Below, in pieces: positions 3,092-51,320 of a DNA stretch of 64,000 bases. The notes beneath the pieces were generated by a model that did not search any database, was not told where the DNA came from, and saw only the letters and a program-made list of their open reading frames with translations. The translations under genes were made by a program, and so were the position numbers. Position 1 is the first letter of the stretch; each line of letters begins with the position of its first letter. Source of the stretch: Stegostoma tigrinum (taxonomy: Eukaryota); contig NC_081365.1 of NCBI RefSeq assembly GCF_030684315.1, positions 39,330,985-39,394,984 of the forward strand, written 5' to 3'.

Positions 3092-3102
3092 AGAAGGGTC
3101 AT

Positions 3103-20160: not shown

Positions 20161-21048
20161 CATCCAACAAAAAAAACAATAGTGCACAATACCTTTCATT
20201 CTACAGCCAGGCTTCAAAAACTGTTTTTAAAAGAAGCTGCCAAGATGACAAAAATAATTACTGGTTAACTATTAACGTCAGACACACAGAGAAACCCATC
20301 AGTTACTAACTCAAAATCCAGATCCAAACTTATGCCAAATATTATTAAAAATTATACACATGAACCCTATAGTTTGCATCACAAATGCCAAATTAAAAAG
20401 TTTGACAAAATGCACTCAAGCCCTGTACCACCAAATGGCTATTTATTTTAATTCTTTTCACAGCATGTATAGATTACTATACGAGTATCTGGGTGTATGC
20501 AGAGGACAGTAGAGACAGTCAAACTCTATATTCCTTTACCTGAATATTCCATTTATATAGACTGCATTGTAAAAAGATTTTTAATATTTGCCTTCATAAT
20601 TGCGTACATTTCTTTAAACATCCCCAGACCAGTCTCATTCCAAAAGTTCTCTCCTGATGCATGATTAGGAAAGTAACTTAGAAGCAAAGATAACTTTTCT
20701 GACATTCAGAGACAGGAAAAAAGATTCTCACCTGCCATTAGGTGAAGCAGATAACGTTAATAGAAGCATTTAACTCTCTCAAGGTATATCTGTCAGACGG
20801 GCTAGCAATAAATACAGTTCAATTTTCCAAAACAACTGTTCAAAGTCCTTTTTCAAACTCAGACTAGAACACTGAGTAGGGGCAAATATATTTGGGTTAA
20901 GTCAGAAAAAGAGGATTATGTTGAACTATACCATAATGACTTCCAGTGTATATTGGCAACAGCAATTCCTCTTCTTGCCAATAAAACCAAAGACAAAGGG
21001 TGGCTGAGGGGGGAATGGGCTACACAAGAGGGATTTTGTCAACTATGT

Positions 21049-21263
21049 TCAGAGATAATGGGAACTGCAGATGCTGGAGAATCCAAGATAACAAAGTGTG
21101 AAGCTGGATGAACAAACTGGCCAAGCTGCATCTTAGGAGCATAAAAGCTGATGTTTCGGGCCTAGACCCTTCTGATGAAGGGCGTAGGTTTGAAATGTCA
21201 GCTTTTATGCTCCTAAGATGCAGCTTGGCCTGCTGTGTTCATCCAGCCCCGCACTTTGTCATC
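21049..21263. mobile_element. Palindromic PLE-derived mini-element (older copy)
   Basis: Same family and layout as 2965-3195. TSD TTTTGTCAACTRTGT at 21034-21048 and 21264-21278. Confidence 0.85.
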
Positions 21264-21612
21264 TTTTGTCAACTGTGTGTCACTCCATATGGCTTTATCA
21301 GAAGTGTACACCACTTTTGTCCTCTTTCTTTTACTCACTTGTTTATACAATTTCAATTAAAATTTAAAGTGCTGGTAAATGCAAGCAAGCTTTTCAGTGC
21401 TGAAACCCACAATCAGCTGATTGTGTTGCAGTTACGACTGGTCTATTAGATATCCTCCCATCAAACAAAGAGCCTCTGCACCATAGATACTACCTTCCTG
21501 TACAACTCAATTGCTATTAACATTAGACTTAAGAGTGTTGCACTAACGTTTATCAAATTTAAATTTCGCCTGTAAATATATGCCATTACATTGAATTCAA
21601 TTCATTCATGTG

Positions 21613-22833
21613 TGTTATACAGAGAAAGAGAGGTTAAATTAAAGAAAAACCCTGAAGTTTATTTTAAGTAACAAGTAACAATTTACTTATTTAACCCTTA
21701 GAGTGAACAAATTAACAGAACTACCAACAAACCGAACAATTCCACCCAACTCCTAACTATTCACTAACTGAACAAAATTCCACTGGTATGCTAGTCCAAT
21801 AAACACAAGTCCCACTTATACAACCCAAGTCGTAAGAAAGAAAGTGAAATACAACTTGGTCTCACAAAGTCCACACAGAATGTGTCGTCTGGAAAGGTCT
21901 GCCTTCTCTGCTATTTCTCCAGTCATAAACACTTTACTTCCACTGATCATGCTGTCGGGGATGTTTTCTCTATGAAGACTCTCAGCTAGCAGTGTCAGCT
22001 ACTTTTTATAGAAAATGTGGTGCTTTCTGAGAGAGCTCAGATAGGGGAAGGTGATGGCCTAGTGGTATTATTGCTGAGCTGTTAATCCAGAGGACTAGAT
22101 AAAATTCTGGGGACCCGGGTTTGAAACCCCCCATGCCAGATGGTGGAATTTGAATTTAATAAATATCTGGAATTAACAGTCTAATAATAACCATGAATCC
22201 ACTGTTGATTGTCAGGAAAAACCCAACTGGTTCACTAATGTTCTTCAGGGAAGAATACTCTCGTCCTTACTTGGTCTGGCCTACATGTGACTCCAGACCC
22301 ACGGCAATGTGGTTGACTCTTAACTGCCCTCTCGGCAATTAGAGATGGGCAATAAATGCTGCCTAGCCAGTGACACTCTCATCCCGTGAATGAGTTAAAG
22401 AAAATATTTAGTGATTTCTTACGAGAGCTAGGTGCTTATTTCTCAGATGACAGTTCGCTCTCATGCTGATTTTCAAAAACCCTCTCCTTATATACCTTAG
22501 ATGAATTATCAATTTTCCTACATTAGCATTGGCCTAAGGTTGTCAAAACTGTCAAATTTAAATTCAATTGGCTTTTAATCACTAAATGCTTGGTTTAAGT
22601 TAATTGGCTGATTCCAGCTCATTGCCAAAACATGAAAGCATACCATGGTTTCCAATCACACAGTTGATACATGTTTCAGCTGCTACAGACAAATTTTCAT
22701 TTTAATCTCCAAACATAGAAAAGTACATCACCTCTTAAAGGGACTATGCACTCTTCTCCCTTATCTTTATTTTACAAACAAATTCTAGCTTTTTGCCTTC
22801 CAATTAACGATTATCCTACATAATTTTGTAACA
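21613..22833. mobile_element. Solo LTR (Gypsy/ERV-like) interrupted by a SINE
   Basis: Termini TGTTATA...TGTAACA; 4-bp TSD TGTG at 21609-21612 and 22834-22837. Confidence 0.65.
22044..22400 (+). mobile_element. tRNA-derived SINE, family 2 (best copy). Related copies at ~1-214(-), 2250-2510(-), 2720-2964(+), 14735-15080(-), 31130-31440(+), 52620-52900(+)
   Basis: A box TGGCCTAGTGG, B box GGTTTGAAACC, shared core CTGGCCTACATGTGACTCCAG; 3' tail matches LINE family B. Confidence 0.8.
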
Positions 22834-23434
22834 TGTGCATAATCATTATTTGTTAAGATTCACATAGTCAGAAAGCTAAATGTACGGCACGCCTCATTGT
22901 TGACGTATACTGATAATTACAGAGATATAAAGTACATTTCATGCAGGGAGAGTTTTTTTTTGTTCACTGTTTATCGAAAGTTCATGTTGCTATCCAGAGT
23001 TATACACACCATTCCAAACGCGTGGCTGAACTTGCAGGCTTAGTTAACCCTTCATTCAATGCATTACAAAGAACTTTCTCATAGGTCAGTCTCAGTGGAG
23101 GTAATGGAAATATTGCACTGAACATAAAGCCCTGTACGGCCTCTATCTGCCAAACCCCAGCTCCATATCACTCCTTCTCTGAGCTGGACACACATTTTGA
23201 TAGTACCAATAGTGCTCTTTTGGCTTCTAATTTTTTTAAACCTTGAATGATTGTTTTCTTCACTCCTCTCCCTGCTAGAATCAGGATGCCAGGAGCTTCC
23301 CGCTCTCTTCCCTATGCTCCCGACTCCATCAATGAATTTTATCTTTACTCTAAGTATAATTATTGACCATATGCACACTGAGTTGGGTCACAATGATGGC
23401 AGAGCGCATAGAGCTGGATATGTAACAGGCATGG

Positions 23435-23630
23435 TGAATGCTGGAGAAACTCAGCAGGTAAGATAACATTTGTGAAGAGAAAAACAGTTAATGTCAGAAC
23501 TGAAGCAGTCATATCAGACTCAAAACATTAACTCTGTTTCTCTGTCCACAGATGCTGCCAGATCTGCTGAGTTTCTCCAACACTTTTTGAGTCTGCTTTG
23601 GATTTCCAGCATCAACAGTATTTTGCATTG
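23435..23630. mobile_element. Degenerate palindromic PLE 3'-end element (third family)
   Basis: TGCTGGAGAAACTCAGCAG is mirrored by CTGCTGAGTTTCTCCAACA; eroded CTGAAG..GTC..GAC..AAAACATT core near the centre. No TSD seen. Confidence 0.6.
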
Positions 23631-26600
23631 ATCTACCAGAGTGGGATGTCCTCTCTTACTATCATCTGTATTTGGCTCTGTCCAGTAAACTTGTTGCTGT
23701 TGCTGTTCATTTGCAAGATTGCTGATCTCACATTACTACAGTCTTCATTCTCTGTCTTCCAATCGATGTCTCTTGCGTTCCTACATGACCCTGGCTTCAC
23801 TGATCACCCTTGCTGGTTCCAAGCCTCGAAGGAAGCTGCTATTCTGCTCCTCCCCTCAAATTTGTCACAGACTTAAACAAAGCAAATTGCTGACATATAA
23901 CTGCACAAGGTGACAGGTGTACTCTATCTTTGAACAACCAGGGACCAAATGTCACAAGGTTCTCATTTCTAAAGTGCAGTCTTATGGGACTTGTAACTCA
24001 AGCTTTGTTTATCTCTCTCCACAGGTGCTGCCAGGCCAAAGTTTCTCCAGCACTCTGTTTTTATGTCACAAGATTTTCATTTGCTGCTGAAGTCATTTTT
24101 GAGCTGGGTTATACTTTAGGTTTTATGCTAATAAGTATTTATGTGATGCAAGTAAATAATAAATATGACCATGCCACAGGCCACTGTGAAGCTCAGTACA
24201 CCATAAATATGTTGCAATCTCTGCACTTGAACCTACCACTGGGAAATTGAGACTTCATATCCCATCTAATTAAGATACGCTACTCATTATACCTCCCATA
24301 ATGCTTAAGCTTACATACATAACTTGAGGCTATGATGTAGCCTTTTATCCCAACAATAACTGATCCAGCATTTTATTTTTGTTTTTGTGTTTTTTAAGTG
24401 TACGCGTTAACTTTGTCGAACTGTTAATATCACAGCTTTATTGTGGTTATAAATTTAAAAGGTTTTCAAACCCTCTTTCAACTTCTTGAACGTACCACCC
24501 TGAAATCTTCAATGGCTGAGATTTCACAGGAAGAATTCTCTAAACTGGGGCACTCTAACTTCAAAGGACTCAGCGCTTGAAGATTCAATGTTTCCTCTCA
24601 TTAAGATGCATGGATTGAAGAATGTTGAGACCCCAAGCTGCAGATTAGGACTGACTTTGAATAAAATTTAAATATCTTTGGAAAATCTTCCAGTTGAGAA
24701 AAAGCCGGTTCAGTCATGAATTAAATATTGTTTGCTTTCGGTCTGTAAAAGACTGTACTTCAGTAACCATGCACTATCAATTATCATGCCTGAAAATAGG
24801 GGTTGAGAATCTACCAAGCCTTTACATTTTAAACACAATTTAAGGATTAATTTCATCGTGAATCTTCTACCTGGAGCTGGCTTTCTGGAGTTGTGGTTCA
24901 TGCTGTTTCCTAAGCCCCAGGGTGTGTGTTTGCTTTAAACAAGCAAGAGCGATAAATAATTAACTGTCAATTACAAAACTGATCACTGGAACTGCTTTAA
25001 GTGTAGAGAGCAGCTGAGACACAAAACCATGCAAAGTCATTTCAAGTAAGACAGCCAAGTTGTTTGAAAAGGGATATGCACACATACTTGATAATATTTT
25101 GATTCTGGAAAACATTATCAATGACCAATAGGTCAATTGACCTGGTGTTAGTTTGGAAAAAGTCATAAATTTAAATTAAGAACTTACAATCTTTTCCTGC
25201 AAATATGTCAGTGTTTCCAAAAGGGCTGATAATATTTTTAACGTATGTGGTTGTAAAATGGAGTAGAAGACATCCTGGAAACTTGAAAAACCTGTATTAG
25301 ATCCTGGGAGAGATACAGTTACACTGCCTGATGCAAAATAGCTCTCAACTTAATTGTACTAGCTCTGTGCAAAATGTATCACAGAGTGGTTTCAGAACAG
25401 GATAGAATTTGACTAATTGTGCCTGTGCTGAATCTCTGAAAAAGTAACTTAGCAAGTGCCACTACCAAGCCTTCTTTCTGGATCGTCTTCCTTTGCAATT
25501 AATAATCCAATTCCTTGTCAACTGAACCTGAATTCAGTACACCGTCTGTCAGTGCAATCCAGATATTAACCACTCATTTTTCCTCATATTTCTGTTGCTT
25601 CTCTTGTTAATAAATGTCGTCTGTGCAGTCCTGTTCCATCTATTCTTCCATAATGGAAATAGGTTTTCCCTATCTACCCTGTGCAGGAGTCTTATTATTT
25701 TGAACACTTCCATCAAATCTGATAGCCTCCCCTTCAACAAGAAAAATAATCACAATCTCTCCAGTTTATAACTAACTAAAGATTCTCACACCAGAACCAT
25801 TTCTGTCTCTTTTTAATGCATTCTCTCCAATGCCATTACGTTTTTCCTGAAGGATGGTGCCTGGAAGCAGTTATTTCCACCACTAAAGTGATGGAAGATG
25901 TCGTCAACAGTTTCATCAAGCTGCACCTGCTCACTGATGCCCAGTTTGGGTTCTGCCAGGGCCAATCAGCTCCTGACAACATTCCAGCCTTGGTTTAAAC
26001 ATGCTCAAAAGCACTAGTCCCAGAGGCGAGGTGAGAGTGACACCCCTTGACATCATGGCAGCATTCAACCAAGTGTAACATCAAGCAGCCATAACAAAAC
26101 TGGAATCAATGGGAAATAGTGGAAAACTCTTGATAGGTTGGAGTCATAGCTGAAAGATAGGAAGAAGGCTGTGGTTTTTGGATGTCATCTCAGTCATCTC
26201 AGCTCCAGGACATCTCTGTAGGTGGTCAGGATAGTGTCCTAGACTCCACCATCTTCAAATGCTTCATCAACAGCCTTCCCTCCAGTATAAGGTCAGAAGT
26301 GGGGATGTTGACTGATGATTGCATAATGTTCAGCACCACCCGCAGCTCTTCAAATACTGGAGCAGTTCATGTTTAAATACAATAAGAGCTTGACAATATT
26401 TACACTGAGCTGACAAATGGCAAGTAACATTCATGCCACACAAATGCTAGGCAATGATCATTTCTAATAAGAGACAATCATCTCCGCTCTTGACACTAAA
26501 TGGCATTACAATCACTGAATTCCCCACGGTCAGCATCCTAGGGAGTTACCATTGCCCAGAATTTCAACTGGACTCACCATACATATGTGGCTACAACAGC

Positions 26601-26652
26601 AGGTCAGAGGCTAGGAGCAGGAGCAAGTTACTCACCTCCCGAGTTCCTGCAA

Positions 26653-27574
26653 TGTTGGGTTTTAAAATGATATCTTCAAACCAGACCACAAAATGTCTGC
26701 GGCACGGTGGCTCAGTGGTTGGCACTGCGGCTTCACAGCGCCAGGGGCCCGGGTTTGATTCCTGCCTCAGGCGACTGTCTGTGTGGAGTTTGCACATTCT
26801 CCCTGTGTCTGCTTGGGTTTCCTCCGGGCGCTCCGGTTTCCTCCCACAGCCCAAAGATGTGCAGGCTAGGTGGATTGGCCATGCTAAATTGCCCGTAGTG
26901 TCCAGGGGTGTGTGGGTTATAGGGGGAGGGGTCTGGCTGGGATGCTTCAAGGGGCAGTGTGGACTTGTTGGGCCAAAAGGCCTGTTTCCACACTGTAGGG
27001 AATCTAATCTAAAAGGTTTAATCATTAAGGGTTAATTGTTCATGGCAAGAAACAATTGTTGGAAAGCAGAGAGTACATGAAAAGTAGGCCTGTTTTGACT
27101 AGGAGGTTACTGTATGACACTGAATTGTCTGTGAGAACTGTCCTGTTGTGCAGTTACGTGGGGCCACATGGGTTTATTTCTCAGCCTGTTTTGAACCTTG
27201 AGAAAGTTCTGCTGTCATGATGAAATGGGGGTTCATCGTATTACCTCAGATTCAGATTGAATTAATACCAGGGACTTTGACATACTCCTCAGACTTTTGA
27301 CCACTGGACTGGAGTTCTCTAGATCAGTGCCATGGAATACCATTGCCAAAGTCCCTGTTGGATGGAAGGCAATGCGAGATTCACATGTTTATATTTATTA
27401 TATACACATATTATATAGTTTAGGCTAATAGATACAGTCATCAAATTGCATACGTTTCTAATATATACTAAGTAGGTTAAGATAATAAATTTACTTCATT
27501 TTAAAGTGCACATGTCTTCTTGCACTAATTTTGGTCAGACATTAAAGAATCCATTAGGTACTTTCAGCCTAACA
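26653..27574 (+). mobile_element. Possible solo LTR inside a LINE, itself carrying an HE1 SINE
   Basis: TGTTGGG...CCTAACA termini and AATAAA near 27485; splits LINE family B. No clear TSD. Confidence 0.45.
26699..27010 (+). mobile_element. HE1-type V-SINE
   Basis: Full head, V-domain and tail, ending in (AATCT)n. Confidence 0.88.
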
Positions 27575-28386
27575 ACATACTCCCAAACCCGATCAGCCAT
27601 CAACAAGGCATAAGTCAGCTGAGTAATGAGATACTCCCCTCTTATTTGGATGAGTGCAGCTCCAACAAAACTCAAGAAGTTTGACATCACCCAGGACAAA
27701 GCAGCCCACTTGACTGACGTCACATCCAAAAGCATCCGTTCCCTCTACTATTGACATTCAGTAGTAGCAATGTGTCCCGCCTACAAAATGTGCTGCAGAA
27801 ATTCACCAAACATCATTCAACAGCACCTTCCAAAGCAATAACCACTTCTATCTAGAAGGACAAGGGCAACAGTTACATGGGAATACCACCACCTTCAAAT
27901 TCCCTCCAAGTTTCTCACCATCCTGACTTAGAAATAAATCACTATTCCTTAAGTGCTGCTGGGTCAAAATCCTGGAATTCCCTCCCTAATTGCATTGTGA
28001 GTCAATTTACAGCACATTTACTGCAGCAGTTCACAAAGGCCATTCACCACCATCTTCTCAAAGGTAACTAGGGACAGGCAATAAATTTTGGCCAACCAGT
28101 GATTCCACACCCCATGAGTGAATATAAAATAACTATCAAAAGTACAATATTCCAGTTGAGGCTAAAATAGTATTCCATACATGTTACCCACAACCTCCTT
28201 GCTTTTTTATCCAATGTCTCTAACAACAAAGCTTAGGAAGCTGTATGCTTATTAACCACTCTCTCAACCTTTCCCTTCATCTTCAACAACTTATGCACTT
28301 GAACATCAAGGTTGCTGAATCCATTTTTAGAAATGTATCCTTCAGTTTACATTGGGTCTTCTTTCTTTTTCTGCTAAAATTAATTT

Positions 28387-28687
28387 TAGATTAGATTAGA
28401 TTCCCTACAGTGTGGAAACAGGACCTTTGGCCCAACAAGTCCTCACCGTCCCTTGAAGCATCCCACCCAGACCCCTCCCCCATAACCCACACACCCCTGG
28501 ACACTACGGGCAATTTAGCATGGCCTAGCCACCTAAACCGCACATCTTTGGACTGTGGGACGAAATCCATGCAGACACGGGGAGAATGTGCAAACTCCAC
28601 ACAGACAGTCGCCCGAGGTGGGAATCGACCCCAGGTCCCTGGCGCTGTGAGGCTGCAGTGCTAACCACTGAGCCACCATGCCGCCCC
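28387..28687 (-). mobile_element. HE1-type V-SINE
   Basis: Reverse-complement copy with (TAGAT)n tail. Confidence 0.85.
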
Positions 28688-28794
28688 AGTATTTAACTCC
28701 TTAAATCATTTAGCTCCTCTCTGTTTAAATTTTACCTACTACTTATCCACTCAATCCAACACCTCTTGTCTGTAACCTTTGAATTTCTGCACTA

Positions 28795-30210
28795 TCTAAG
28801 GTTTCAGCGAAGATTTTTAGCTTGGGTTGTGGATGAGATTGTTGACTTGCTCACCAAGCTGGCTTATTTTTGTTCAGATGTTTCGTCGCCATGCTAGGTA
28901 ACATCATCAGTGAGGCCTACAATGAAACAATATTGTTCTACTCCTGACCCGTCCGTTATGATGAGTTGAGTAATTTCTGGTTTTGTTCTGTACAGGTTTG
29001 TATATGGGGTCCAATTCTATATGTTTGTTGATTGCATTATGGGTTGAGAACCGTGCCTCTAGGAATTCCCGTGCATGTCTACATTTGGCTTCGGCTACTA
29101 TGGTTATGTTGTCCCAATTAAACCGATGGCCTTCATTGTCTGAGTGTACTAATATTAAGGAAAGTTCATTGTGTAGTTTTGCTGCAAGTTGATGCTCATG
29201 TATCGTCTTGGCTAGTTTCCTTCCTGTCTGTCTGATGGCAGTTGTTGCATGGTAAACTACGTTGGTTCTGCATGCTGTGAGAGTAGGGTCTTTAATCCTT
29301 GTGAGTATTTTTCATAGAGTGGCTGTGGGCTTGGATGCTACCATCATTCCTAACTTTTGTCGGAGTCTTGTCAGTTCTGATATGTTCTTGATAAAGGGCA
29401 GTGTGGCCAGTGTGTTAGGGCGTACTGTGTCCTCTTGGTGGTGTCTATTTAGTAGGTAGTTGCGGATAACTTGTAGGCATATCCGTTCATAGTGAAGATT
29501 TTATAAAGGTGCTCTTCCACTTTCCTGCGTAGTTCTGGTGTTTTGCAGCGAGTAGTGGCCCATTTAAGTAGTGTCCTCATACAGCTTTGTTTGTGGATGT
29601 TGGGGTGGTTGCTGTGGAAGTTGAGGATTTGGTCAGTGTGGGTTGGTTTCCAATATACCGAGGTTTGGGATTCCCCATTGGTCATACGTTCAACTCTGAT
29701 GTCCAGAAATGGAAGCTGATTGTTGTTTTCATTTTCTTTTGTGAATTTAATTCTGGCGAATATGTTGTTGTTGAGGTAGAGGGTCTCTTCTAGTTTGGTG
29801 CGTTTAATGAGGACAAATGTGTCACCCATGTACCAGATCCACAGTTTAGATTGAGCGTGGGGGAGGGTGGTGTGTTCTAGTCTTTGCATGACTGCCTCTG
29901 CGATAAGTCCTGCGATGGGGGTGAGTCTATGGGTGTGCCATTGATCTGCTTGTATACTTGAATTTTAAAGGCAAACTATGTGGTGAGGCATAAGTCTAGT
30001 AGTTTGAGTATGTTGTCATTGTTGATGGAGCTGCTGGTCTGAGTTCCTGCTTCCTTTAGTAATGTGACCAGTGTTTCTTTGGCTAGTGGGATGTCGATTG
30101 ACGTGAATAATACTGTGATGACAAAGGATACCATATTCTCAACATCACTGATTTTTATATTGTTGAGAGTACTGCAGACTTCTTGGGTTGAGTGGATGGA
30201 ATGGGGTGCA
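28795..30210 (-). mobile_element. Decayed Poseidon-type Penelope-like element
   Basis: LWIWYMGDTFV (decayed RYVDD), IKFTKE..NNQLPFLDI, SVYWKPTHTDQILNFHSNHP; upstream MVSFVITVLFTSI; 3' hammerhead. Clade call from overall motif style. Confidence 0.8.
28877..28910 (-). ncRNA. Hammerhead motif at 3' end of Poseidon-type PLE
   Basis: Reverse complement CTGATGA-T-GTTACC(TAGCAT)GGCGAC-GAAACATC; flanks TCA/TGA can form a short stem I. Confidence 0.6.
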
Positions 30211-32040: not shown

Positions 32041-32620
32041 TGTGAACTGTGGGATTTATACGTATAATGTTTAACGTTAGTCGCTGCAGCTTGGTACTTT
32101 GGAGTTGATCTAGTAGCTAGTGGGTTTTCCTGATTAATTTCCTAATTAACTTATAAATATTTCTATGGTCATGGCGATTTATTTTAAAACCAGTTTTTGA
32201 AGCCTGGCTGTAAAGTAAAAGTACATTTGTGTGCCAATTGGCTTCTGTTTATTTTGGATAGTTTGCAACTCTGTGGTAAATCTACGACCTCAGAGAGAAT
32301 TGTTGGACAGTTCTGGAATTGGCTTTTCAGATTGTCGTTGGCACTCTTGGCTTAGACAGCAAAACTTTTAATTTCACTTTTAACTTTGAGTACTGTTAAT
32401 CCTGGGAATTTAGAAATGTATAGGCTCAGATTACTCTCGTTTATCTAAAGTCCTTTTTTAATAGACATCCAGTTTATTGTTAAAGTAAACCCTTTGTATG
32501 CTCATCATTAAGCGAGAGACCACCTTGTTAAAAACAAAACAATAAGAATGAGATCTATCAAGTCATGTTTCTGTCTGGGATCTGACTTGTCCAGTAGTAA
32601 TATTTGATGATATCATAACA
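32041..32620 (+). mobile_element. Probable solo LTR inserted in a LINE; related reverse copy at ~18604-20383 split by a CR1
   Basis: TGTG...ATAACA termini. 32480-32620 is similar to the reverse complement of 18604-18790. The LINE resumes on both sides. Confidence 0.55.
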
Positions 32621-38066: not shown

Positions 38067-38139
38067 GCTGAAATAGCTTAGTTAGAAGAGCATTAGACTG
38101 AAGCTGTAAAGGTCCCTGGTTCGATTCTGGGTTTTGGCA
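38067..38139 (+). pseudogene. tRNA-Phe(GAA) pseudogene
   Basis: 73 nt colinear with vertebrate cytosolic tRNA-Phe (GCTGAAATAGCTTAG...GACTGAAGC...GGTTCGATT...TTTTGGCA). 10 substitutions versus the recalled consensus, including invariant G18>A and C40>G breaking the anticodon stem; 4 are CpG transitions. Confidence 0.85.
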
Positions 38140-38161
38140 AAATATACAAGAAACTCCACTT

Positions 38162-38282
38162 TGGTGGCGTTTTATGGTGTGATAGTAGGGTCCCTACCTC
38201 TGAGTTAGAAGGCATGGGTTCAAGTTCTACCTGGTCGAGAGGTGTGTCATAACGCATTTGAACAGGTTGATTAAAATATCTA
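38162..38282 (+). mobile_element. Short tRNA-derived SINE-like element; related copies at ~57291-57402(+) and ~55085-55155(-)
   Basis: TGGTGTRRTRGT...CCTACCT...TTCAAGTTC head and common end TTAAAATATCT. Confidence 0.55.
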
Positions 38283-39276: not shown

Positions 39277-41065
39277 TCCTTCTGCCACAGGTACCCAAGA
39301 CTGATTACACATGCACAAAAACAGCATGCTCCCCAAATAGTATTTAATGCTTGTTATCTTGTGTGGGATATAACATGCCTTGGGCAGTTTTTGAGGGCTT
39401 CACCGACATATTATTAAATTAGTTATAATTTTCCACGACTGCTTTATAAACTTTTATTTTAATTTTTGTTTTGCAAGATGTAGCGGCAAATATGAACATT
39501 ATTTGCAATAAGAAAGCTTCTATTGACAGCCAAGATACCAATCTAATCAGCATAAGCTTATTACTCCACTGCATGCAATTGCAGAGACAGTTAAAGTAAA
39601 CAGCTGTCTCTGACTGAGTGCAATTTACAGGAAATGGTTAGTCTCTCACTTTCTGGACCTCATTTATAAAAGGCAACCATGTCAGCTCTCCATTTATGTC
39701 ACTGAAGTGTTTCCACAAAATGTTCACTCTGCTAATGTTTTAGGGAACATCTCAATTATACAATGGAGTACATTTCAGGGCACGACAGGTAATGAAAAAA
39801 AGCACACACAAAATTGCACCAGTTTGGACAAGTGTTTTTGCGTCCCTCTATTTTGTTTTCAACCTATTTGCATGTCATATGCATTTTCTGCTATGAAACT
39901 GCTATCAAGCAGTGATTGGAAAATTTCTTTAGAAGAAAGCAAACTGCTTTGAAAAAATGTCCTTTGATGTATTTAGACACACAGGTAGACAATTGCTGTT
40001 AAATTAAAAGATAAATATTGTTATCAACATGCTTGGTCTATCACTTGCAATTAACTGCCTTTTAAATAACAGAAAATAATTTTGAAACACTATACAGAGC
40101 TAATGGCAAAATATTTATCCTTGTAGCAAAACCTCACTTCAACAGCATCTTCAAAAACCAGCAAATTGACATATTAGCAGTAGCTTCCAATTGTGATTAA
40201 TTCAGTTTGGGCACAGGACCAGTTCTAGCATTCTTTTAAAAACACAGATTTGATTATTACTGGACAGAATTTGCAGTTATATATCCACAATCATTTAGTT
40301 TGATTTCATCTCCTGCACTCATCTTACTGATGTTGGGTGAACTGTATGGAAAACACCAAAACATAACCTCCAGGCCCACAACTAACATTTTGGTGATAAC
40401 AAGGTGTGGAGCTGGATGAACACAGCAGGCCAAGCAGCATCAGAGGAGCAGGAAAGCTGACGTTTCGGGCCTAGACCCTACATCAGAAAAGGGGGATGGG
40501 GTGAGGGAACTGGAATAAATAGGGAGAGAGGGGGAGGCGGACCGAAGATGGAGAGAAAAGAAGATAGGTGGAGAGAGTATAGGTGGGGAGGTAGGGAGGG
40601 GATAGGTCAGTCCAGGGAAGATGGACAGGTTAAGGAGGTGGGATGAGGTTAGTAGGTAGATGGGGGTGCCGCTTGGGGTGGGAGGAAGGGATGGGTGAGA
40701 GGAAGAACAGGTTAGGGAGGCAGAGACAGGTTGGACTGGTTTTGGGATGCAGTGGGTGGGGGGGAAGAGCTGGGCTGGTTGTGTGGTGCAGTGGGGGGAG
40801 GGGACGAACTGGGCTGGTTTAGGGATGCAGTAGGGGAAGGGGAGATTTTGAAACTGGTGAAGTCCACATTGATACCATTAGACTGCAGAGTTCAGCTAGG
40901 CGGATGAGGGTGTCGGTAGAGGGGGACTGGTCGGGCCTGCGGGACAGGAAGAAGCGGAGGGCCTTGAGGCCATCTGCATGCGGAATGCAGGTGTATAGGG
41001 ACTGGACGTCCATGGTGAAGATGAGGTGTTGGGGGCCAGGGAATTGGAAGTCCTGGAGGAGGTGG

Positions 41066-42499
41066 AGGCCCTCCGCTTCTTCCTGTCCCGCAGGCCCGAC
41101 CAGTCCCCCTCCACCGACACCCTCATCCGCCTAGCTGAACTCGTCCTCACACTCAACAACTTCTCTTTTGACTCCTCCCACTTCCTACAGACTAAGGGGG
41201 TGGCCATGGGCACCCGCATGGGCCCCAGCTATGCCTGCCTCTTTGTAGGTTACGTGGAACAGTCCCTCTTCCGCACCTACACAGGCCCCAAACCCCACCT
41301 CTTCCTCCGGTACATTGATGACTGTATTGGCGCCGCCTCTTGCTCCCCAGAGGAGCTTGAACAGTTCATCCACTTCACCAACACCTTCCACCCCAACCTT
41401 CAGTTCACCTGGGCCATCTCCAGCACATCCGTCACCTTCCTGGACCTCTCAGTCTCCATCTCAGGCAACCAGCTTGTAACTGATGTCCATTTCAAGCCCA
41501 CCGACTCCCACAGCTACCTAGAATACACCTCCTCCCACTCAACATCCTGCAAAAATTCCATCCCCTATTCCCAATTCTTCCGCCTCCGCCGCATCTGCTC
41601 CCACGATAAGACATTCCACTCCCGCACATCCCAGATGTCCAAGTTCTTTAAGGACCGCAACTTTCCCCCCACAGTGATCGAGAACGCCCTTGACCGCGTC
41701 TCCCGTATTTCCCGCAACACATCCCTCACACCCCGCTCCCCCCACAACCGCCCAAAGAGGATTCCCCTCGTTCTCACACACCACCCTACCAACCTCCGGT
41801 TACAACGCATCATCCTCCGACACTTCCGCCATTTACAATCCGACCCCACCACCCAAGACATTTTTCCATCCCCACCCCTGTCTGCTTTCCAGAGAGACCA
41901 CTCTCTCTGTGACTCCCTTGTTCGCTCCACACTGCCCTCCAACCCCACCACACCCGGCACCTTCCCCTGCAACCGCAGGAAATGCTACACTTGCCCCCAC
42001 ACCTCCTCCCTCACCCCTATCCCCGGCCCCAAGATGACATTCCACATTAAGCAGAGGTTCACCTGCACATCTGCCAATGTGGTATACTGCATCCACTGTA
42101 CCCGGTGTGGCTTCCTCTACATTGGGGAAACCAAGCGGAGGCTTGGAGACCGCTTTGCAGAACACCTCCGCTCAGTTCGCAACCAACAACTGCACCTCCC
42201 AGTTGCAAACCATTTCCACTCCCCCTCCCATTCTCTAGATGACATGTCCGTCATGGGCCTCCTGCAGTGCCACAATGATGCCACCCGAAGGTTGCAGGCA
42301 ACTCATATTCCGCCTGGGAACCCTGCAGCCATATGGTATCAATGTGGACTTCACCAGTTTCAAAATCTCCCCTTCCCCTACTGCATCCCTAAACCAGCCC
42401 AGTTCGTCCCCTCCCCCCACTGCACCACACAACCAGCCCAGCTCTTCCCCCCCACCCACTGCATCCCAAAACCAGTCCAACCTGTCTCTGCCTCCCTAA
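41066..42499 (+). pseudogene. PLE reverse transcriptase / GIY-YIG endonuclease ORF (5'-truncated, one frameshift near 42298)
   Basis: QTKGVAMGTRMGPSYA, LRYIDD, FLDL and FKPTD RT motifs. PCNRRKCYTC Cys linker (Neptune-type). NVVYCIHCTRCGFLYIGET GIY-YIG motif. C-terminus QLIFRLGTLQPYGIN continues in a shifted frame. Confidence 0.9.
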
Positions 42500-42722
42500 C
42501 CGGTTCTTCCTCTCACCCATCCCTTCCTCCCACCCCAAGCCGCACCCCCATCTACCTATAACCTCATCCCACCTCCTTGACCTGTCCGTCTTCCCTGGAC
42601 TGACCTATCCCCTCCCTACCTCCCCACCTACACTCTCTCCACCTATCTTCTTTTCTCTCCATCTTCGGTCCGCCTCCCCCTCTCTCCCTATTTATTCCAG
42701 TTACCTCTCCCCATCCCCCTCT

Positions 42723-42750
42723 CTGATGAAGGGTCTAGGCCCGAAACGTC
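42723..42750 (+). ncRNA. Minimal type I hammerhead ribozyme motif in PLE pLTR
   Basis: CTGATGA-A-GGGT(CTAG)GCCC-GAAACGTC: conserved core, stem II hairpin, palindromic ACGT in place of helix III, GUC triplet. Confidence 0.75.
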
Positions 42751-42811
42751 AGCTTTTGTGCTCCTGAGATGCTGCTTGGCCTGCTGTGTTCATCCAGCCT
42801 CACATTTTATT

Positions 42812-43290
42812 AACCAAGTTATAGTCCAACAGGTTTATTTGAAGAGACAAGCTTTCACAGCCTTGCTCCCTCTTCATGTGTTGGTGAGAAAGGTGGAATC
42901 AGACACAGAATTTATAAGTAAAAGATCAAAGGATCATAGCACTGATGAGGATGTATTAAACAAACCTACGATGCTATTAAATCTTTAATGAGTTGGAAGA
43001 TTTTAATTGATTAATATGTAGATGTAAACCCCTGATTCCTTTCCAGTCACTGCCCCAAGAGAACTAATGGTTTTATCAGTATGAAGAACAGGTGACATTT
43101 TAGGCCAGGCAAATTAGGGGTCAGACCTTGTTTAGAATCCATTTGTATTTTGTTTGGAGTCAGACTGGTGTTATTTCGAAAGTAGGAATTTATGAAAAGC
43201 CATATAGCCCAACTGTCTATAAATTGTGTGTTTTTTGAACAAAATATAATGTATCCACAAATACAAATTCACCCCATAGATTTACATGGG
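42812..43290 (-). mobile_element. PLE 3' remnant of the 50371 family
   Basis: GTTATAGTCCAACAGGTTTATTTG terminal motif is shared with the 50371-50576 arms. Confidence 0.55.
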
Positions 43291-43536
43291 TGTATGTGTG
43301 AGGGAGAGAGACAGTGAGTGTGTAAGGGATGTAGAGAGACAATGAGTGTGATGTGTGAGGTGGAGGGGAGAGCAAGAGTGCGCGCACGCGTGTGTGTGTG
43401 TGTGAGAGTGAGTGAGTGACAGTGAGCGTGTGAGGGAGGTAGAGAGAGAGTGAGTATGTGTGTATGAGGTGGAGGGGGGAGCGGGAAAGTGCGCGTGTGT
43501 GTGTGTGAGTGAGAGACAGAGAAACAGTGTGTGTGT
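43290..43536. repeat. Mixed (GT)/(GA) low-complexity tract with higher-order repetition
   Basis: Recurrent GAGAGACAGTGAGTG and GAGGTGGAGGGGGAG blocks. Confidence 0.8.
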
Positions 43537-43779
43537 TGGCTGTCAATGCTTGGTGTCAGCAAATGTGGGTAATTGTTTGGGGGTGGAATGTGAATCTCTT
43601 CCTTGTTTGAAGCGTTCCAGTTGCCTCATTTAAATCATAGCATGGCATGCAAATTTAGGAATGCCTCTGGCACCAAACGAAACACGGTAGAAATGTGACT
43701 TTTAGTGCATTTACAGTCAGAAATGGTTCTGTTGCAGCACACATATTTAGCAGAAACAACAATCAAAAACTTCAATGTC

Positions 43780-44700
43780 ACCCCCCCAACAATTGAAAAT
43801 GAATTAATTGTGTCAATTTTAGATCAGAATACAATATTGAAATTATACGAAAGTAACTGGTAGGGATGAGGACCTGCAGTTTACTAAGTGACAACATGCA
43901 TGGATTTTGGAGGTGAACATTCTGCTCAACAAATGTTTTGACATATTAAGATAATATAAATAAACCAACGCAATCCAAGTTCCTACGTTATAGAGTACTT
44001 CAACCATCACGAAGTCTTTGACAAAGTCCTATATGAAAAACACAAATTAAATAAAATCTTTAAACATTTACGATAGGATACAAGAGTAGGTAAGGAATCA
44101 GATAACAAAAAGGAAATGTTAGTTGTGAACACTGCAACTTAATCTGTTGCACCCAAATATTTTTCCAAAAAGCTTGCAGCAGGGTACAGATTGAGAGGCT
44201 TGACTAAAATGTCGAACTGTCAGCTATCACTGGTGATGTACTGTGATGGATTGAGAACTGGGTAAATGCCTACTACAGGAAGAGGTTAAATAATTTTGGA
44301 TCTATTTAGAGAGCGATCATTACAATATTTCATTAGGACCATTGTTAATTATCATTTTAGCTCAGTTAGCTAGGCTAGATATAAGCTTGGGGGAATGATC
44401 GTCAAGTTTAGAGATGATAGTAAGATTTATGCAATAGTTAAGGCTGTAAATAATCCTTTCAAATGGATCTAGATGAGAGGCGAATTGGGCTCTTAACTGG
44501 CAATTGACGTTTAAATTACAAAATGCAATGTTATTCCCACAGGCAATGCTGGATAAGTATTAATGTGTGAGTACTGAATATATTCAGGAGAAATACTGAA
44601 GCTGGCGGAGAAAGAATTTGGGCATTCCAGTGCATAAATTGCTTTGGCTTCTTGACTAAAGACTTGAATTAAGTGCTATTGAGTGAACACAACGTTAAAA
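43780..44700 (+). mobile_element. Very old CR1 RT remnant
   Basis: Traces of QHGF, CSTN, FDKV, LGPLL and DDSK motifs. Confidence 0.5.
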
Positions 44701-44979
44701 CATACTTATGGGACAGTGCACTATCATCCTCATATGAGGTCTATGTTAAGATATTAGTTTTGGTTTCCCAAAGTGAGAGCTTTGTCAGTTTTTGGTTGAT
44801 GGGATATGATAAGATGTCATCTTCTAGATTAGTTTTGATCATCTAAAAGATTGGGGAGAGGGGGCAATGTCCATTCACATGTAAGGCAATTGAAAAAGAT
44901 ATTTCTACACTTTTAAGATGAACTATTTATTTTTAAAATATGATTCTGTGCCTCTCCCAGAAGACGGCAAGGCTCCTAG

Positions 44980-45275
44980 GATGGTGACGGTGACGGCGAG
45001 CACGAGGGGGCATAGCTTTAAATTGAGGGGTGAAAGATATAGGACAGATGTCAGAGGTAGTTTCTTTACTCAGAGAGTAGTAAGGGAATGGAACGCTTTG
45101 CCTGCAACGGTAGTAGATTCGCCAACTTTAGGTACATTTAAGTCGTCATTGGACAAGCATATGGACGTACATGGAATAGTGTAAGTTAGATGGGCTTGAG
45201 ATCAGTATGACAGGTCGGCACAACATCGAGAGCCGAAGGGCCTGTACTGTGCTGTAATGTTCTATATATGTTCTA
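44980..45275 (+). mobile_element. Young CR1 LINE 3' end
   Basis: Intact STRGHSFKL...[14 protein letters not shown] peptide, retained CpGs, CR1 tail. Confidence 0.85.
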
Positions 45276-46901
45276 TAAACATTGTGTTGTACAAGGCATT
45301 ACAACTGTATGGATGGGAAGGTTTGGATGAACAGTTTATCTTTACAGATCCATCATTTCCTAAATCATGGCAAACATTTTAGTGACTCCAGTAACAGTCA
45401 GCAACCTAAACCACTCACTCAAAACAAATACTAACATTCTTTAAAAACCAGTGTACTATGTTAGTGCAACAATCCAAAATAAGGAATTCAGATGTCAATG
45501 GAAAACTACTTGCTCTGCATCTACTATACAGAATTAGTAACCTTTTTTAGTGTATGTATACGGAGGAGTTGAAGAACTAACGCTGAGATTAAGTCTGTTT
45601 GCAGTAATCCTGCAAGTGTGTCTAGTCCTGGGATGCTTGTATCTCTCGCTTAATCATGAAGCTTTGCTGTAATCTCAAGCCACAAACTCATTACATTCGG
45701 TTGTCCTTCTGGTTTAACTATACCAAGTGAAATTGCAAAAACACTTATGGCTACTTCGCTATCAAGATGGTATTTAAGGCAAGCCTGATCCAGGTCAGAC
45801 ACAATGGGCCAAATGGCCTTCTATTGTGCTTTAAGGCTTTTCATGTTTCTAAGACCAGGCTTCCCTCCCCAATGGAATTTTAAGACGTTGAAGCACAAAC
45901 AAAAGAGAATTATCCAAATATGTGAGGTATCGAGCACTCAACGTGGAAGAAACCAATGGTGTAGAATGCAAATAGATAATACTTCTGAGGTGAATGAGTT
46001 TTACATTATTCAGATCAAATGAAATTCTTTGCTAATCGTGCACAAATGCAGATTTTTAAGTGAGTATCGGTGTGATACTGGAAGGAAGCTTTTCAAATAT
46101 TTCATTTTCTTTACTGCAAGCAGTAAATGGTATCTTATTTATATTCCGACATGTTTCCCAGATTACAGACATCTTCTCCTGTAAACATGGTCCCAGATGA
46201 AGCACATTATTAAGAATCTTGGCACACAAAATATTACTGTAACCACTTATTTTGAATAATGTATCACACCTGGGCTCAATTTCAAAGAGACCTTGTCTAT
46301 CGTCTGTATTTTAGTGAAGATTGAATGCAGGAGTAAATGAATGAGAAAACTACTTCAATAATAAGGTAAAGCTCTGCAAATGCAATACTAGAAAATCCAT
46401 TGTCTACAGTGAATATTTCTATTAGGTTCCAGAGTCATAGAGTTATACAGCATGGAAACAGATCCTTTGGTCCAACTTGTCTGTATCAACCAGATATCCT
46501 AAAATGATTTAATCCCACTTGCCAGCATTTGGACCATATCCCTTTAAATTCTTCCTATTCATGTACCAATCTAGATGCCTTTTAAATGTCATAATTGTAT
46601 ACCCCTCCACCACCTGTTCTGGCAGTTTGTTCCATGCATGAACCATTCTCTATGTGAAAACGTTGGTTGAACAGACTTGAAAGTTAATTTAACCAAGCAC
46701 AAGTTTGAACCACTTTCAATACAGAAAACCTATTCAGCTTTATGTTACTGCAACATCTGTGAAATAATTATACCCTGACACTGTTACAAAAGTACATGTT
46801 GCTTCTTCAAAGGGAATGCAGCACATTTCATGTTGCCTTGTTATTACCTGTTACACGCTACTGTAACAAAGATGAACAGTGCAAAGCCAGGGATCACTTA
46901 C

Positions 46902-47279
46902 CTGTCAGGTTCCCCTTAGCATTGTAGGATCCCCAGTAGGTTGATTCTGTGTTAGGAGTGTGGCATTCATATTCCCCTGTGTCTCGTAGTTGTAGATTGG
47001 TGATGTGTAAGAGTGCTGAGTCTCCATCAATTCTCTCAACGTAGACCTCATTATTATGGACTCTCTCTGCATAAACAGCATAGGGGTAACCAGGATCATT
47101 TGTGCTGACTATCTGGATTTGCCTTTCAGGTGCAGAAGGCAGATAGATGGACCATTCAAAATTCTGCTGTGTGGAACCTACATATCCAGATACATTACAC
47201 CAAATGGTTATGTGGTATCCTTCTGCTCTGATCAATGGGCCTTCCTGTACCTGGACATGTCTTTGAGCTGCACACAGGC
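46902..47279 (-). CDS. IGSF3: Internal coding exon: end of signal peptide plus first V-type Ig domain of an IGSF3-like (EWI family, IGSF3/CD101 branch) protein
   Basis: Translation (G)LCAAQRHVQVQEGPLIRAEGYHITIWCNVSGY...QQNFEWSIYLPSAPERQIQIVST...LLHITNLQLRDTGEYECHTPNTESTYWGSYNAKGNLT closely matches IGSF3 Ig1 as recalled, with canonical Cys/Trp and DxGxYxC. Acceptor tttctcttttgcAG precedes 47279 and donor G|GTAAGT follows 46902. Length 378 nt, phase 1-1. Confidence 0.9.
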
Positions 47280-47407
47280 CTGCAAAAGAGAAACAATAGA
47301 TGTACGAAGTTAGATGACTTCTCAGAAACAATCCACGAGACCACTTAAATCCAAATGTTCCTTGCCTCCTTCTTTCCCACCACTTATGCCTCCCAATTTT
47401 CTCTGAG

Positions 47408-48370
47408 AGCCATAGAGTCATACAGCATGGAAACAGACTCTTCGGTCCAACTAGTCCATGCTGACCATAATGCCAAACCAAATTAGTCCCATCTGCTTGT
47501 TCTTGACCCATATGCCTTCAAACACTTTTTGATTCATGTACTTATCCAAATGTCTTCTGAATGTTGTAACAGTATCCACATCCACCTCTTCCTCTGGAAG
47601 TTCATTCCACACAAAAACCACTCGCTGTTAAAAAAGTTGTCCCTCATGTCTTTCTCCTCTCACCTTAAAAATATGCCTCCTGTCTTGAAATCTCCCACCT
47701 TAGGGAAAATAGAACATTACAGCACAGTACAGGCCCTTCGGCCCTCGAATACACCTGCCATTCACCTTATCTACACTCCTCATGATTTTACAGACCTAAA
47801 TAAGTTCACCCCTCAACTTCCCACGCTCCATGAAAAAAGTCCCAGCCATTCCAGCCCCTCCTTATAACTCAAACCCTCCATTCCTGATAACATCTTAGTA
47901 AATCTTTTCTGAACACTCTCCAGCTTAATAATATCCTTCCTATAACAGGAGACCAGAACGGCACACAGTACTCCAGAAGAAGCCTCACCAACGTCTTGCA
48001 CAACCTTGACAAGACATCTCAATTCCCATCATGAAAGGTCTGAGCAATGGAGGCAAGTGTACTAAGCTGCCCTGTCTACATTTGAGCAAATTTCAAAGAA
48101 TTATGTTCCTGAACCTGACAGGTCTCTCTGTTCTACAATACTACCCAAGGCCCTAATTTTAATTGTATAAGTTCTGCCCTTGTTTGTTTTACCGAACTGC
48201 AATAACTCACATTTATTCAAATTAAACTCTATCTGCCACTCCTCAGCATGTTGACCCAACTGATCAATATCAGTCTGTAATCTTAGATAATCTTCCTTAC
48301 TGTCCACTATACCACCAATTTTTGTGTCACCTGCAGACTTAATAACTATGTGTTCTATATTCTCAATTAA
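47408..48370 (-). mobile_element. CR1 LINE 3' fragment
   Basis: AGDTKIGGIVDSKEDYLRLQTDIDQL...WQIEFNLNKC and KDIIKLESVQKRFTKML; tail at 47410-47520. Confidence 0.85.
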
Positions 48371-50370
48371 ATCATTTTCACCACAGTGGACATATTCTGT
48401 CCAAGTGCAGATCAGTGCCTGAGAATTCTCAGTGCACTCAGGGATCATCAGAAACATCCAAAAAATGGAGAAGATGAAAAAAAGGAGAGTATACACAGTA
48501 GATCTGGAGTTGGGAGGAGCTCCTTCCCCATCACTGTTCTGCATGAGAAGGGAATTAATGAAAATGTTTTCTGACACTTCTGTAATTGTCTCCAGTACCA
48601 TTGTGAAGCAAGAGAAATTTTTATGTTGAACATCCCACCAGTTTCTCGTGCATTTTATAGAATGATCAATTATCATTAGTATAATACTACTTTGCACATT
48701 TAAATTGATCCACTACTTATTTCAGCTAGCCTCAGGGATGTTCAGAGTCAGTGAAGAGGAGTAGGAACACTGGTTGTACACATTAGAAACAGGCCTTCAC
48801 ATTCACATTTGACATAAACTACATCAGTTTTTGAATAAAGTAAAGAAAAGCAGTGCATGCACTTTTTTCTTGAATGTGGCCCAGACCAAATACCAAGATG
48901 ACAGATCAGGCCCACATTTAATTTAACTCTTCTGATCGGCAAATTGAAAGAATCAGCTTGTTGCTTTGATTTGTATCTTCAGTTAGCTTTTAAATACTTT
49001 CCTGAAGAACAAAGTTCAAATCATAAACGCATCATACATGCTTTCAGCTAGATATTATTACACTAGCCCAAGAATTTCTACTACAGATGCTGGTTTCCTT
49101 TTGCAATTTTAGATGTTGATGAAAATTGATGAAAAATTTGTCCCTGTTGTGACAGAAAATGAATGGCTTGTCGCTGAAGAGATTATACCATTTTTCAATT
49201 TTTTAATATTTCATGCTTCAGTGCTGAAGAACAGTAAGAAAAGCAGAAGCAAAATCATTAATTATATTTTGGTCTGTCTTTCCTTATAAGCCAGAGCGTA
49301 AATGGTCAGAAACAGCTGAATATTATTGTGAACACGTGTGTTATAAACCAAATAGAAAGGATTTATACTGCACTTTGATATCCCTTCATTTTAATTTTGT
49401 TTCAATACAAATTAGTTTTATTTTACAAAGTCACAGAAATTTCAAACAAAAGACTATTTGAGAATTTCCATCTATGCTGGCTGTCTTCTTTAATCCAATT
49501 AGCCAGCCTGAGACCTGAGACGACACCCAGTAGAGCATTAGTTAACAGAATTGACAAGTGTTGGTAGAATATTTAACGATGAAGTTACTGCTAATGCAGA
49601 TGTTGGCCTTATTGGAGGTGTACAAGTTGTGGATCAATTTAAGGTGTAAATATAAATTAAAATTTATATTTTCATGCATTGAAGTTCTGTTAGGAATTTT
49701 CTAATCGTCTGCTGCAACTTTAAGAAAACTACATTGGAAGCCCGGAGAAACTGCATGAATTCACCCCCCTCCCCACCTCAGCCACAGAAATGCAGCCACA
49801 GTATTCGTACCATCACTGTTCTTCACAAATTAACAGCTACCTCAATGCAATTGCCAGTGAGCTCTGATTCACAGCACACAGTTACACGGCTGATGGATTT
49901 ATGCAAATTTTGTTTTAGAAAACATAACAGGCTTCTAGTACTGCTGTTCATTTAAGGTTTGAGTAGGGCGTAATTTTCTCCCTGTTGTAAATATTACTTG
50001 AAGCTAACATCAGAATCTGTCGTCTAGCAGTTGACTTAAAAATAACAAGAAATACATTTTCCTCCTCTGGCCAAAGTTCTCATCTCTATTTTCCTGAGGG
50101 CGCTTACCTTACTATTACAGAGCATTCCAATGATTGCTGGAACCCTTGAGTAAATGATTGTTAATCTGTGAACCTTCACTGTGAACAATGATGCTGGATT
50201 GGTTAGCATTACAGCCAAGTTCGATGCTGTACAAAATAGCCTATGTAAATTTGTTATGATCAGGTGAGAAGGGAGACTATTGACTTCACTCTTTTTAACA
50301 CCTCTCTCAGTCAGTTGCAACAAATATTTTTATTTCTCTTTAGGCATGAAACTATATCACACCTCAATTA

Positions 50371-50576
50371 TGATGTGGAGGTGTCAGTGTTGGACTGGAA
50401 TGGGCATGGTCAGAAATCACATGACACCAGTTATAGTCCAACAGTTTTATTTGAGAACACAAGTTTCCATAGCCTCAGTCCTTCTTCAGGTGTTAGGAAG
50501 ACTAAGGCTCCAAAAGTTTGTGTTTTCAAATAAACCTGTTGGACTATAACCTTGTGTCCTGTGATTTCTGACTTTG
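50371..50576. mobile_element. Palindromic mini-element of a different PLE family
   Basis: Inverted arms GTCAGAAATCAC...TTATAGTCCAACAG and CTGTTGGACTATAA...GTGATTTCTGAC. TSD CACACCTCAATTA at 50358-50370 and 50577-50589. Degenerate CTGAAGA...GAAA core on the minus strand at the centre. Confidence 0.8.
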
Positions 50577-51320
50577 CACACCTCAATTAGAGCTTGGTTA
50601 AGTAGATCAAAATGGAGGAGCCAATTCTAAGGTTTACTTGAATACAATAAAATGGAATTTCACCATTTACTACTGACAGTGAGTTTTCAATTAATAATGC
50701 ACGTCCCAAATTCTCTCAGCACTGACTTTTGGGGTCAATGAAAGAGTCAAGCAGAGTGGCTTCGCATCCTTCCTTATAAATCCATTTTTCCTGGTGTCTG
50801 CTGTGAAGCAGCTGTTGACAAAGGTCCATGTGTGTATTCCTGAGTCTACTCATTGATCTTCCGGGCTGGCTAAATGGCAGGCAAGCCTTTCATTGCCCAT
50901 TATGTGAAATTATCACACATGTACAGATTAAACAGGAGACACAGATCTATGTTTCTTGATGCTTCGCTGAGTAACAGTGCCCCTCAATATAAATGTTCAT
51001 TGTGATTTAGCTGGTTTTGTGTATTTCAAATAGATTTGCATTAATCTGGCATCAGGTGAACACACAAATATTTTAGGTCAGTATTTTTCCTTCTTAATAT
51101 CATGTTTAATCTTCAAAAGATCTCCAGTATAACAATGAGATGACAGTGATTGAATATTGATAATCCATTTTACATTATGAGTGCAACAATCTGTCATTCA
51201 CTCAGAGGCATGTATTTGCATTTCACAGAAGAGTCACTGGCTCGGTAGAAGTAAAATTGCCATAATCACAGAGAACCATAGGGCTGCCCTTTCAGTAAAG
51301 AGAGACAACTGAGTAAAGAT

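Follow-up and report, generated by a model that had tools for sequence, protein, structure and literature searches.

Clustering of Penelope-like element 5' breakpoints at the upstream hammerhead edge in Stegostoma tigrinum

Penelope-like elements and their hammerhead motifs

The DNA analyzed here, referred to as the window, is a stretch of 64,000 nucleotides of the Stegostoma tigrinum genome (NC_081365.1, positions 39,330,985 to 39,394,984), animal DNA of 41% GC that carries copies of several families of Penelope-like elements (PLEs) with minimal hammerhead ribozyme motifs. Its repeats seem to resemble those of cartilaginous fish. Four of these copies are short palindromes in which inverted arms meet head to head at or inside the hammerhead core, as a preliminary description had noticed, and the arms proved to be real (Table 1). 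One arm is longer by a tail of roughly 34 nt in all four cases, and three palindromes are flanked by target-site duplications (TSDs) of 15, 15 (one mismatch) and 13 bp, again as described. The palindromes come from three families, called here A (2965 and 21049), B (23435) and C (50371). Our main finding is a concentration of 5' ends along the upstream side of the hammerhead; offsets are counted from C3, the first C of the core CTGANGA.

Table 1. PLE copies of the window, with 5' ends given relative to C3
Feature	Coordinates	Strand	5' end(s)	TSD	Remarks
Family A palindrome	2965..3195	- arm 2965-3094, + arm 3102-3195	-3 (to -7) and -1	15 bp, 2950-2964/3196-3210	Arms 95/97 identical; tail on - arm, + arm tail-less; short junction insert composed of nearby sense and antisense pieces
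Family A palindrome	21049..21263		Long arm ends +5, short arm starts -1/-2	14/15 bp match, 21034-21048/21264-21278	Arms 73/86; plain join over 2-3 nt microhomology
Family B palindrome	23435..23632	Tail on + arm	-5/-6 and 0	Looked for, none found	Arms 47/57; left arm without helix II; junction on built-in TCAG/CTGA inverted 4-mer, -6 to +3
Family C palindrome	50371..50576	Tail on - arm	About -5 to -8 and +3 to +5	13 bp, 50358-50370/50577-50589	Arms 63/76
Family A single arm, tail-less	63847..63940	+	-2 to +7	Looked for, none found	Starts at decayed core
Family B-like single arm	23962..24062	+	-7	13 bp (12/13)	Both ends set by TSD
Family B single arm	270..339	+	-5		3' part missing
Family A head-to-head insertion	10690..10777		+60 and +89	14 bp, 10676-10689/10778-10791	88 bp, no hammerhead; last 30 nt of terminal repeat, templated snap-back insert, tail
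Long family A copy	41066..42812	+			Reverse transcriptase and GIY-YIG frame remnant; terminal repeat 42318-42812
Hammerhead of long family A copy	42723-42729 (core)	+			Predicted cleavage between 42750/42751
Inverted part of long copy	40394..41065	-		Looked for at 40394-42812, none found	510-nt terminal repeat arm of other subfamily, inverted 177-nt frame piece
Family A single arm with tail	1414..1608	+	-66
Long family B copy with tail	380..945	-	Far upstream		C3 at 505
Long older family B-like copy	~10250-10654	-	Upstream of core		C3 at 10317
Long older family B copy	57925..58391	-	Upstream of core
Family C copy abutting long family A copy	42813..42900	-	Seems to continue upstream of own core
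Decayed PLE of a different family	~28800-30200	-	Far upstream		Reverse transcriptase and endonuclease-like frames; C3 at 28910

The long family A copy at 41066-42812 ends in sequence that is matched by the arms at 2965, 21049 and 63847. Its single open reading frame (ORF) has reverse transcriptase (RT) followed by a C-terminal GIY-YIG endonuclease, the layout of endonuclease-containing (EN+) PLEs. Pfam matches of the frame were weak and below the curated cut-offs (RVT_1, E 0.0017; GIY-YIG, E 0.0007), and a Pfam search at E 0.001 failed to detect the PLE frames in the window. Protein comparison gave 272 long relatives (at least 717 aa, E <= 1e-40), the closest with 55% identity across the entire query; PF00078 was present in many and PF01541 in some of the 120 relatives listed. 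The translation contains a C-x4-C-x2-C linker ahead of the GIY-YIG motif. According to the consulted portions of PMC8557442, a CX2-5CxxC linker in this place is typical of Neptune PLEs, and Nematis has a linker motif too. Family A is a candidate member of the Neptune clade.

Other hallmarks of EN+ PLEs were also found. The pseudo-long terminal repeat (pLTR) that follows the ORF (42318-42812) contains the hammerhead and has a second copy at 40397-40904. A one-sided tail, 30-40 bp in EN+ PLEs, extends about 34 nt past the short arm at 2965 and 21049 and is present also at 1414 and 10740. Six loci have an inverted 5'-truncated copy in head-to-head orientation, and TSDs were found at five of the ten loci searched. 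Families B and C have their own minimal hammerheads (23435 and 50371). No ORF is tied to family C, which is called a PLE because of its hammerhead, tail, inverted arm and TSD. The tails (1573-1608 and others) hold a pyrimidine tract and tandem CAG that look like a splice acceptor, and the core of this motif is common to families A and B.

The hammerheads were recognized in a motif scan by CUGANGA, helix II, GAAA, a short palindromic helix III region and an NUH triplet, with a helix I of just 2 bp in family A. An Rfam search of the window gave no hammerhead family at E <= 5 and weakly matched microRNA families. Two other classes of element were considered and rejected. A miniature inverted-repeat transposable element (MITE) would be one fixed palindromic unit with a common centre. 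The junction centres of the palindromes at 2965 and 21049 differ within the same family, which makes these two separate events, and arms also occur singly and inside a retroelement. A non-LTR retrozyme is built of tandem head-to-tail hammerhead units (bioRxiv 2026.07.22.740005, part of the text), and the copies of the window are single or inverted. A 41-nt step back seen in contigs (window 42721-42761) would give a tandem hammerhead repeat, a possible seed of a retrozyme-like dimer.

Position of the 5' breakpoints

To score the window, a locus was called core-proximal when every 5' end lay within 10 nt of C3. Two loci were left out of the tally beforehand: an old family B-like copy with a tail (11716-11850, also listed as 11721) that apparently starts near the core and is too decayed to score, and another hammerhead core (63985-64000) that starts at, and is cut by, the window end. 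Seven of the 15 PLE loci were core-proximal (P 2e-6 to 9e-4, binomial test against four smooth length nulls that were our own simple choices). The proportion was 4/6 for head-to-head loci (P 6e-5 to 2.4e-3) and 3/6 for family A loci (P 0.002 to 0.025). The single arm near 63845 was among them, as expected from the preliminary description, whose list of palindromes was correct if selective: two further head-to-head loci (10690 and 40394) and six copies reaching upstream of the core had been missed. These eight are the loci away from the core. They include the 40394-42812 insertion, with its junction inside the RT ORF, and the copy from 42813 onward, whose upstream extent is apparent only and was scored against the finding.

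Contigs from four of 21 listed sequencing runs (X15, X7, X9 and X13) were then aligned to window 42283-42882. Run X15 contains 0.90 of the words of this stretch and may be the window's own source; X7 derives from another organism. The X15 counts are incomplete and thus lower bounds, contig depth is not copy number, and the loose ends discussed are the best 24 of 1228 rows, six per run. In X15, 12246 of the 233618 aligned contigs fitted only partly. At least 731 of them had loose letters upstream of 42722 (-1), with a median of 255 nt, an agreement of 0.37 and an AT-rich composition. This was the only long-flank 5' peak of this kind among the six X15 loose-end places listed: the other upstream rows (269, 365 and 211 contigs) had 13-15 loose nt with an agreement of 0.67-0.77 and lay near indels of the reference copy. 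The same loose end was found in X7 (145 contigs, 115 nt, agreement 0.38). In the 400 nt upstream of the core, X15 depth had a median of about 9 M; across the core it climbed to 28.7, 39.3 and 46.7 M. The tail-less 3' end is also a fixed class, with at least 1048 X15 contigs running into unrelated flank behind 42812, the end shared by the short arms and single arms of the window.

Clustering of 5' breakpoints at the upstream edge of the hammerhead was thus confirmed, in the window and as a contig peak at -1, and the smooth spread along the pLTR that would have spoken against it was seen in neither the window nor the contigs of the same organism. It is highly improbable that the clustering is an artefact of a hammerhead-led search, of short copies that measure about 100 nt anyway and of alignment ends piling up where subfamilies diverge. 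Such a pile-up is real in simulation, where a T-rich subfamily moved true ends of -1 to -6 (to -14 with strict scoring) onto -1; moreover, eight of the 15 window loci are off the core and the loose-end peak was read from six rows per run. However, the simulated pile-up reached no further than -14, the enrichment persisted under the smooth null most favorable to chance (P 7e-4 to 9e-4), the copies bounded by TSDs fix their ends without any alignment to a reference, and the loose flanks are AT-rich, unlike the pyrimidine-rich pLTR.

The search was extended to distant DNA. Exact-pattern scans of metagenome and viral contigs gave no match, and a protein-guided scan of viral contigs gave no locus. 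Protein-guided scans uncovered 24 metagenome loci with 23-39% identity over longer stretches and 42-51% over about 40-55 residues. A strict hammerhead was found in four of these 24 distant loci and a hammerhead-centred palindrome in none. Side observations at two loci were a 343-bp palindrome (1401-1743) upstream of a PLE-like frame in L010 and direct repeats (97 and 3392), each with a hammerhead motif, in L006.

Other features of the window are an immunoglobulin V-set exon on the minus strand (46894-47517, Pfam E 1.3e-9), which presumably resembles IGSF3/IGSF8, and a tRNA-like sequence on the plus strand (38067-38139, Rfam 47.2 bits), possibly a SINE (short interspersed element) head or a pseudogene. 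The PLE remnant at ~28800-30200 adjoins a SINE-like repeat.

How the 5' ends may arise

The preliminary description had suggested that the hammerhead fold may determine where reverse transcription stalls, folds back or changes template, a model in which the RT stalls at or is released from the fold and the cDNA then folds back or switches template. Some observations fit this model: an alternative family A hairpin begins exactly at C3, short snap-back inserts are found at the junctions of 2965, 10690 and 23435, and a contig joint at +28 sits at the 3' foot of the hairpin. Head-to-head palindromes were also read as self-priming by Arkhipova 2013 (PMC3846280, in the portion consulted). The family A RNA is predicted to form a hairpin from 0 to +29 (-11.4 kcal/mol). 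Since the RT reads RNA 3' to 5', ends near +29 would be expected from a stall at this fold. The main peak lies on the other side, at -1, a point reached only after the whole fold has been copied, and stalling is therefore not supported. Fold-back by self-priming of a cDNA hairpin was rejected on energy: the hairpin at the core reaches -1 to -3 kcal/mol, with no local minimum along the pLTR, compared with about -61 kcal/mol for a 30-bp duplex (RNA:RNA parameters as a stand-in). In addition, short arms and single copies share one tail-less end point, the two arms of the long copy derive from different subfamilies, and Naiad PLEs without canonical hammerheads still form inverted structures, according to a section of PMC8557442. 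Overall, the model is quite unlikely. The position claim of the preliminary description holds and its stall mechanism probably does not; a possible role of the fold beyond cleavage survives in another form, the protection of an RNA 5' end by the fold or by bound protein, discussed below. Two further candidates were considered. For a family A splice acceptor at -24, the 24 of 1228 rows listed include no loose end near 42699. A branch-point stall at the core was dropped, as it predicts +4 and there are many AGs downstream.

The long copy at 40394-42812 bears on the question of templates. It consists, in order, of an inverted 510-nt pLTR, an inverted 177-nt RT piece and the direct copy, the right end of which abuts the truncated family C copy. 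The pLTR arms differ at 26/504 nt, whereas the inverted ORF piece differs from the direct copy at 1/77 (over a 77-nt overlap), which suggests that two templates were used in this insertion. Four of the differences are linked alleles, which make up 5-9% of the depth in X15 and 53-97% in X7. The locus appears to be made of three pieces drawn from two subfamily templates; gene conversion or a second insertion is a possible alternative source of the arm differences.

The reading we prefer, tentatively and at somewhat less than even chances, is that the template RNA begins at helix I and that a head-to-head join follows once a pair of cDNAs has run off this end. The element RNA would start 1-7 nt ahead of the core, most simply by transcription initiation on helix I; alternatively, its 5' end may have been trimmed back to a point shielded by the fold or by protein. 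The PLE protein would nick both target strands 13-15 bp apart; cDNA would be primed from one nick at the start site of the tail and from the second nick at the site that leaves the tail out. With priming at the first tail, these sites lie about 125 and 90 nt from the RNA 5' end. Both cDNAs would run off the RNA at those lengths, and their 3' ends would pair through 2-4 nt, in some cases once a short templated insert had been added. Only one cDNA would leave a single arm, and the long, smoothly truncated insertions would come from priming in the more distant pLTR of that RNA. Consistent with this scheme, the available portion of PMC11167929 reports that in vitro the Anolis PLE protein cuts and extends both strands from two start sites that bound the tail, that product length follows the template 5' end and that hammerhead cleavage is not needed.

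A further hint comes from the contig joints. An extra untemplated G is a mark of a capped RNA start, and initiator motifs are found at transcription start sites. Among the 12 of 220 joint rows listed, those landing on -2 and -4 (depths 304 and 125) have one untemplated G each, a weak hint of a capped start; among the papers listed in a literature search for the cap-G signature, none used the term. In families A and B, initiator-like motifs place +1 at -4. Of the listed joints from the pLTR end, the one with the greatest depth (545, plus 129 with one extra A) falls on 42751 (+28). This base directly follows the predicted hammerhead cut, and it is also 2 nt inside the 3' foot of the hairpin. The joint may reflect a cDNA that ran off cleaved RNA and was then continued on another template, or it could come from one amplified locus.

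A number of observations weigh against the run-off reading. Because of the pile-up of the T-rich subfamily, the 42722 peak marks a zone rather than one base, with a resolution of about -1 to -14. A single one of the 15 joints listed changes strand (42730/42762, one of its ends being at the core). The genome-wide peak is therefore evidence on 5' ends in general, and the clustering of inversion points rests mainly on the 4/6 head-to-head loci of the window. Run X9 had no loose end at 42722 among the rows listed (low coverage, too few unique flanks), and those of X13 at 42721/42755 were discarded because the contigs belong to another family and match in the hammerhead alone. The core-proximal 5' ends of window copies have no extra G, the loose-end consensus ends in T, a TCT-like motif has seven matches in the family A pLTR, and by eye family C has no initiator-like motif at the core. 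Variants shared between the arms of the short palindromes are compatible with fold-back and twin priming alike. Finally, Drosophila virilis Penelope starts about 121 nt (46 + 75) upstream of helix I, judging from the consulted portions of PMC2377424 and of PMC4209133, the latter giving the intron end at helix I used for that distance.

The distant D. virilis start would suit an RNA end made by processing, in which longer or read-through transcripts are shortened by a 5'-to-3' exonuclease as far as the hammerhead fold or bound PLE protein and the cDNAs run off the trimmed end. Family by family, the observed ends do follow the 5' foot predicted for the local helix (0/-1 in family A; -6 in family B, against an observed -5 to -7; -5 for the helix I arm of family C, by eye), and in Anolis a protein-binding motif has been proposed in the region from hammerhead to tail, with the protein assisting cleavage (PMC11167929, in part). 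The hairpin, however, has just about -11 kcal/mol. Exonuclease-resistant RNAs need more elaborate folds, and the extra G at the -2 and -4 joints speaks, weakly, for a cap. We regard processing as unlikely.

Very unlikely, in our view, is the amplification of a few short master copies that began at the core by chance and then spread as units, in the manner of SINEs or MITEs. Very many short copies are present in the contigs, and some joint depths (125-545, against 15-28 for apparently single-copy contigs) suggest that some structures may be multiplied. On the other hand, palindrome junctions differ within the same family, the flanks are heterogeneous (agreement 0.37), the same offset recurs in three families with arms from several subfamilies, and a master copy would itself need an RNA starting at the core.

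A bolder and somewhat unlikely extension of the run-off reading is that vertebrate PLE RNAs start on helix I, that hammerhead palindromes are built anew at each insertion and that the genome keeps footprints of both the cap (the extra G at -2 and -4) and in vivo cleavage. If so, active elements would shed strong-stop-like cDNAs of 90-125 nt from the 5' pLTR, paired by a protein dimer, and the template jumps at +28 would show that minimal hammerheads cleave in the germ line.

Comparison with known systems

The architecture itself is ordinary for PLEs, and the position of the breakpoints appears to be the new part. Inverted head-to-head pLTRs, tails, TSDs and palindromic junctions have been published (PMC3846280 and PMC8557442, in the portions seen); a concentration of 5' ends beside the hammerhead was not found in the literature searched (main texts only, with few subscription papers), which included PMC6155905 and the retrozyme preprint. 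How PLE insertion is completed, how the head-to-head inversion forms and what the hammerhead does are called open questions in passages of PMC8557442 and PMC11167929. A sharp endpoint at helix I across families would be a positional readout of very many natural events, and it would explain hairpin repeats that annotation may mistake for MITEs or microRNA precursors.

Like the EN+ PLE insertions described in the accessible portions of PMC3846280 and PMC8557442, those of the window have a head-to-head inverted 5'-truncated copy, a 30-40 bp tail at one end, a TSD and a palindromic junction. Unlike them, they are often no more than a pair of arms, each reaching from the hammerhead to the end and together about 200 bp long, and their TSDs measure 13-15 bp compared with 8-10 bp in Adineta PLEs. 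Poseidon of Anolis carolinensis has, as here, two start sites that bound the tail with the hammerhead upstream of them (Frangieh 2024, PMC11167929, in part), whereas family A differs in its predicted Neptune-type linker. The Poseidon study maps cDNA starts and our finding concerns cDNA ends; its text, as far as available, reports no RNA-seq ends at the cleavage site, where one contig joint lands here. The minimal PLE hammerheads of Cervera and de la Pena 2014 (PMC4209133, in part) share CUGANGA and GAAA, helix II, the lack of helix III and a palindromic ACGU with those of the window, but their opposite-strand motif pairs lie 100-700 bp apart, in contrast to the head-to-head arrangement within about 10 nt seen here. 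The proposed model also resembles twin priming of LINE-1 (L1), in which a second priming at the target site gives microhomology-joined cDNAs and the TSD is kept (PMC10760644, in part). L1, however, inverts a part of the RNA from further upstream, whereas here the same segment would be copied twice from two start sites and, unlike in L1, one case appears to draw on two subfamilies.

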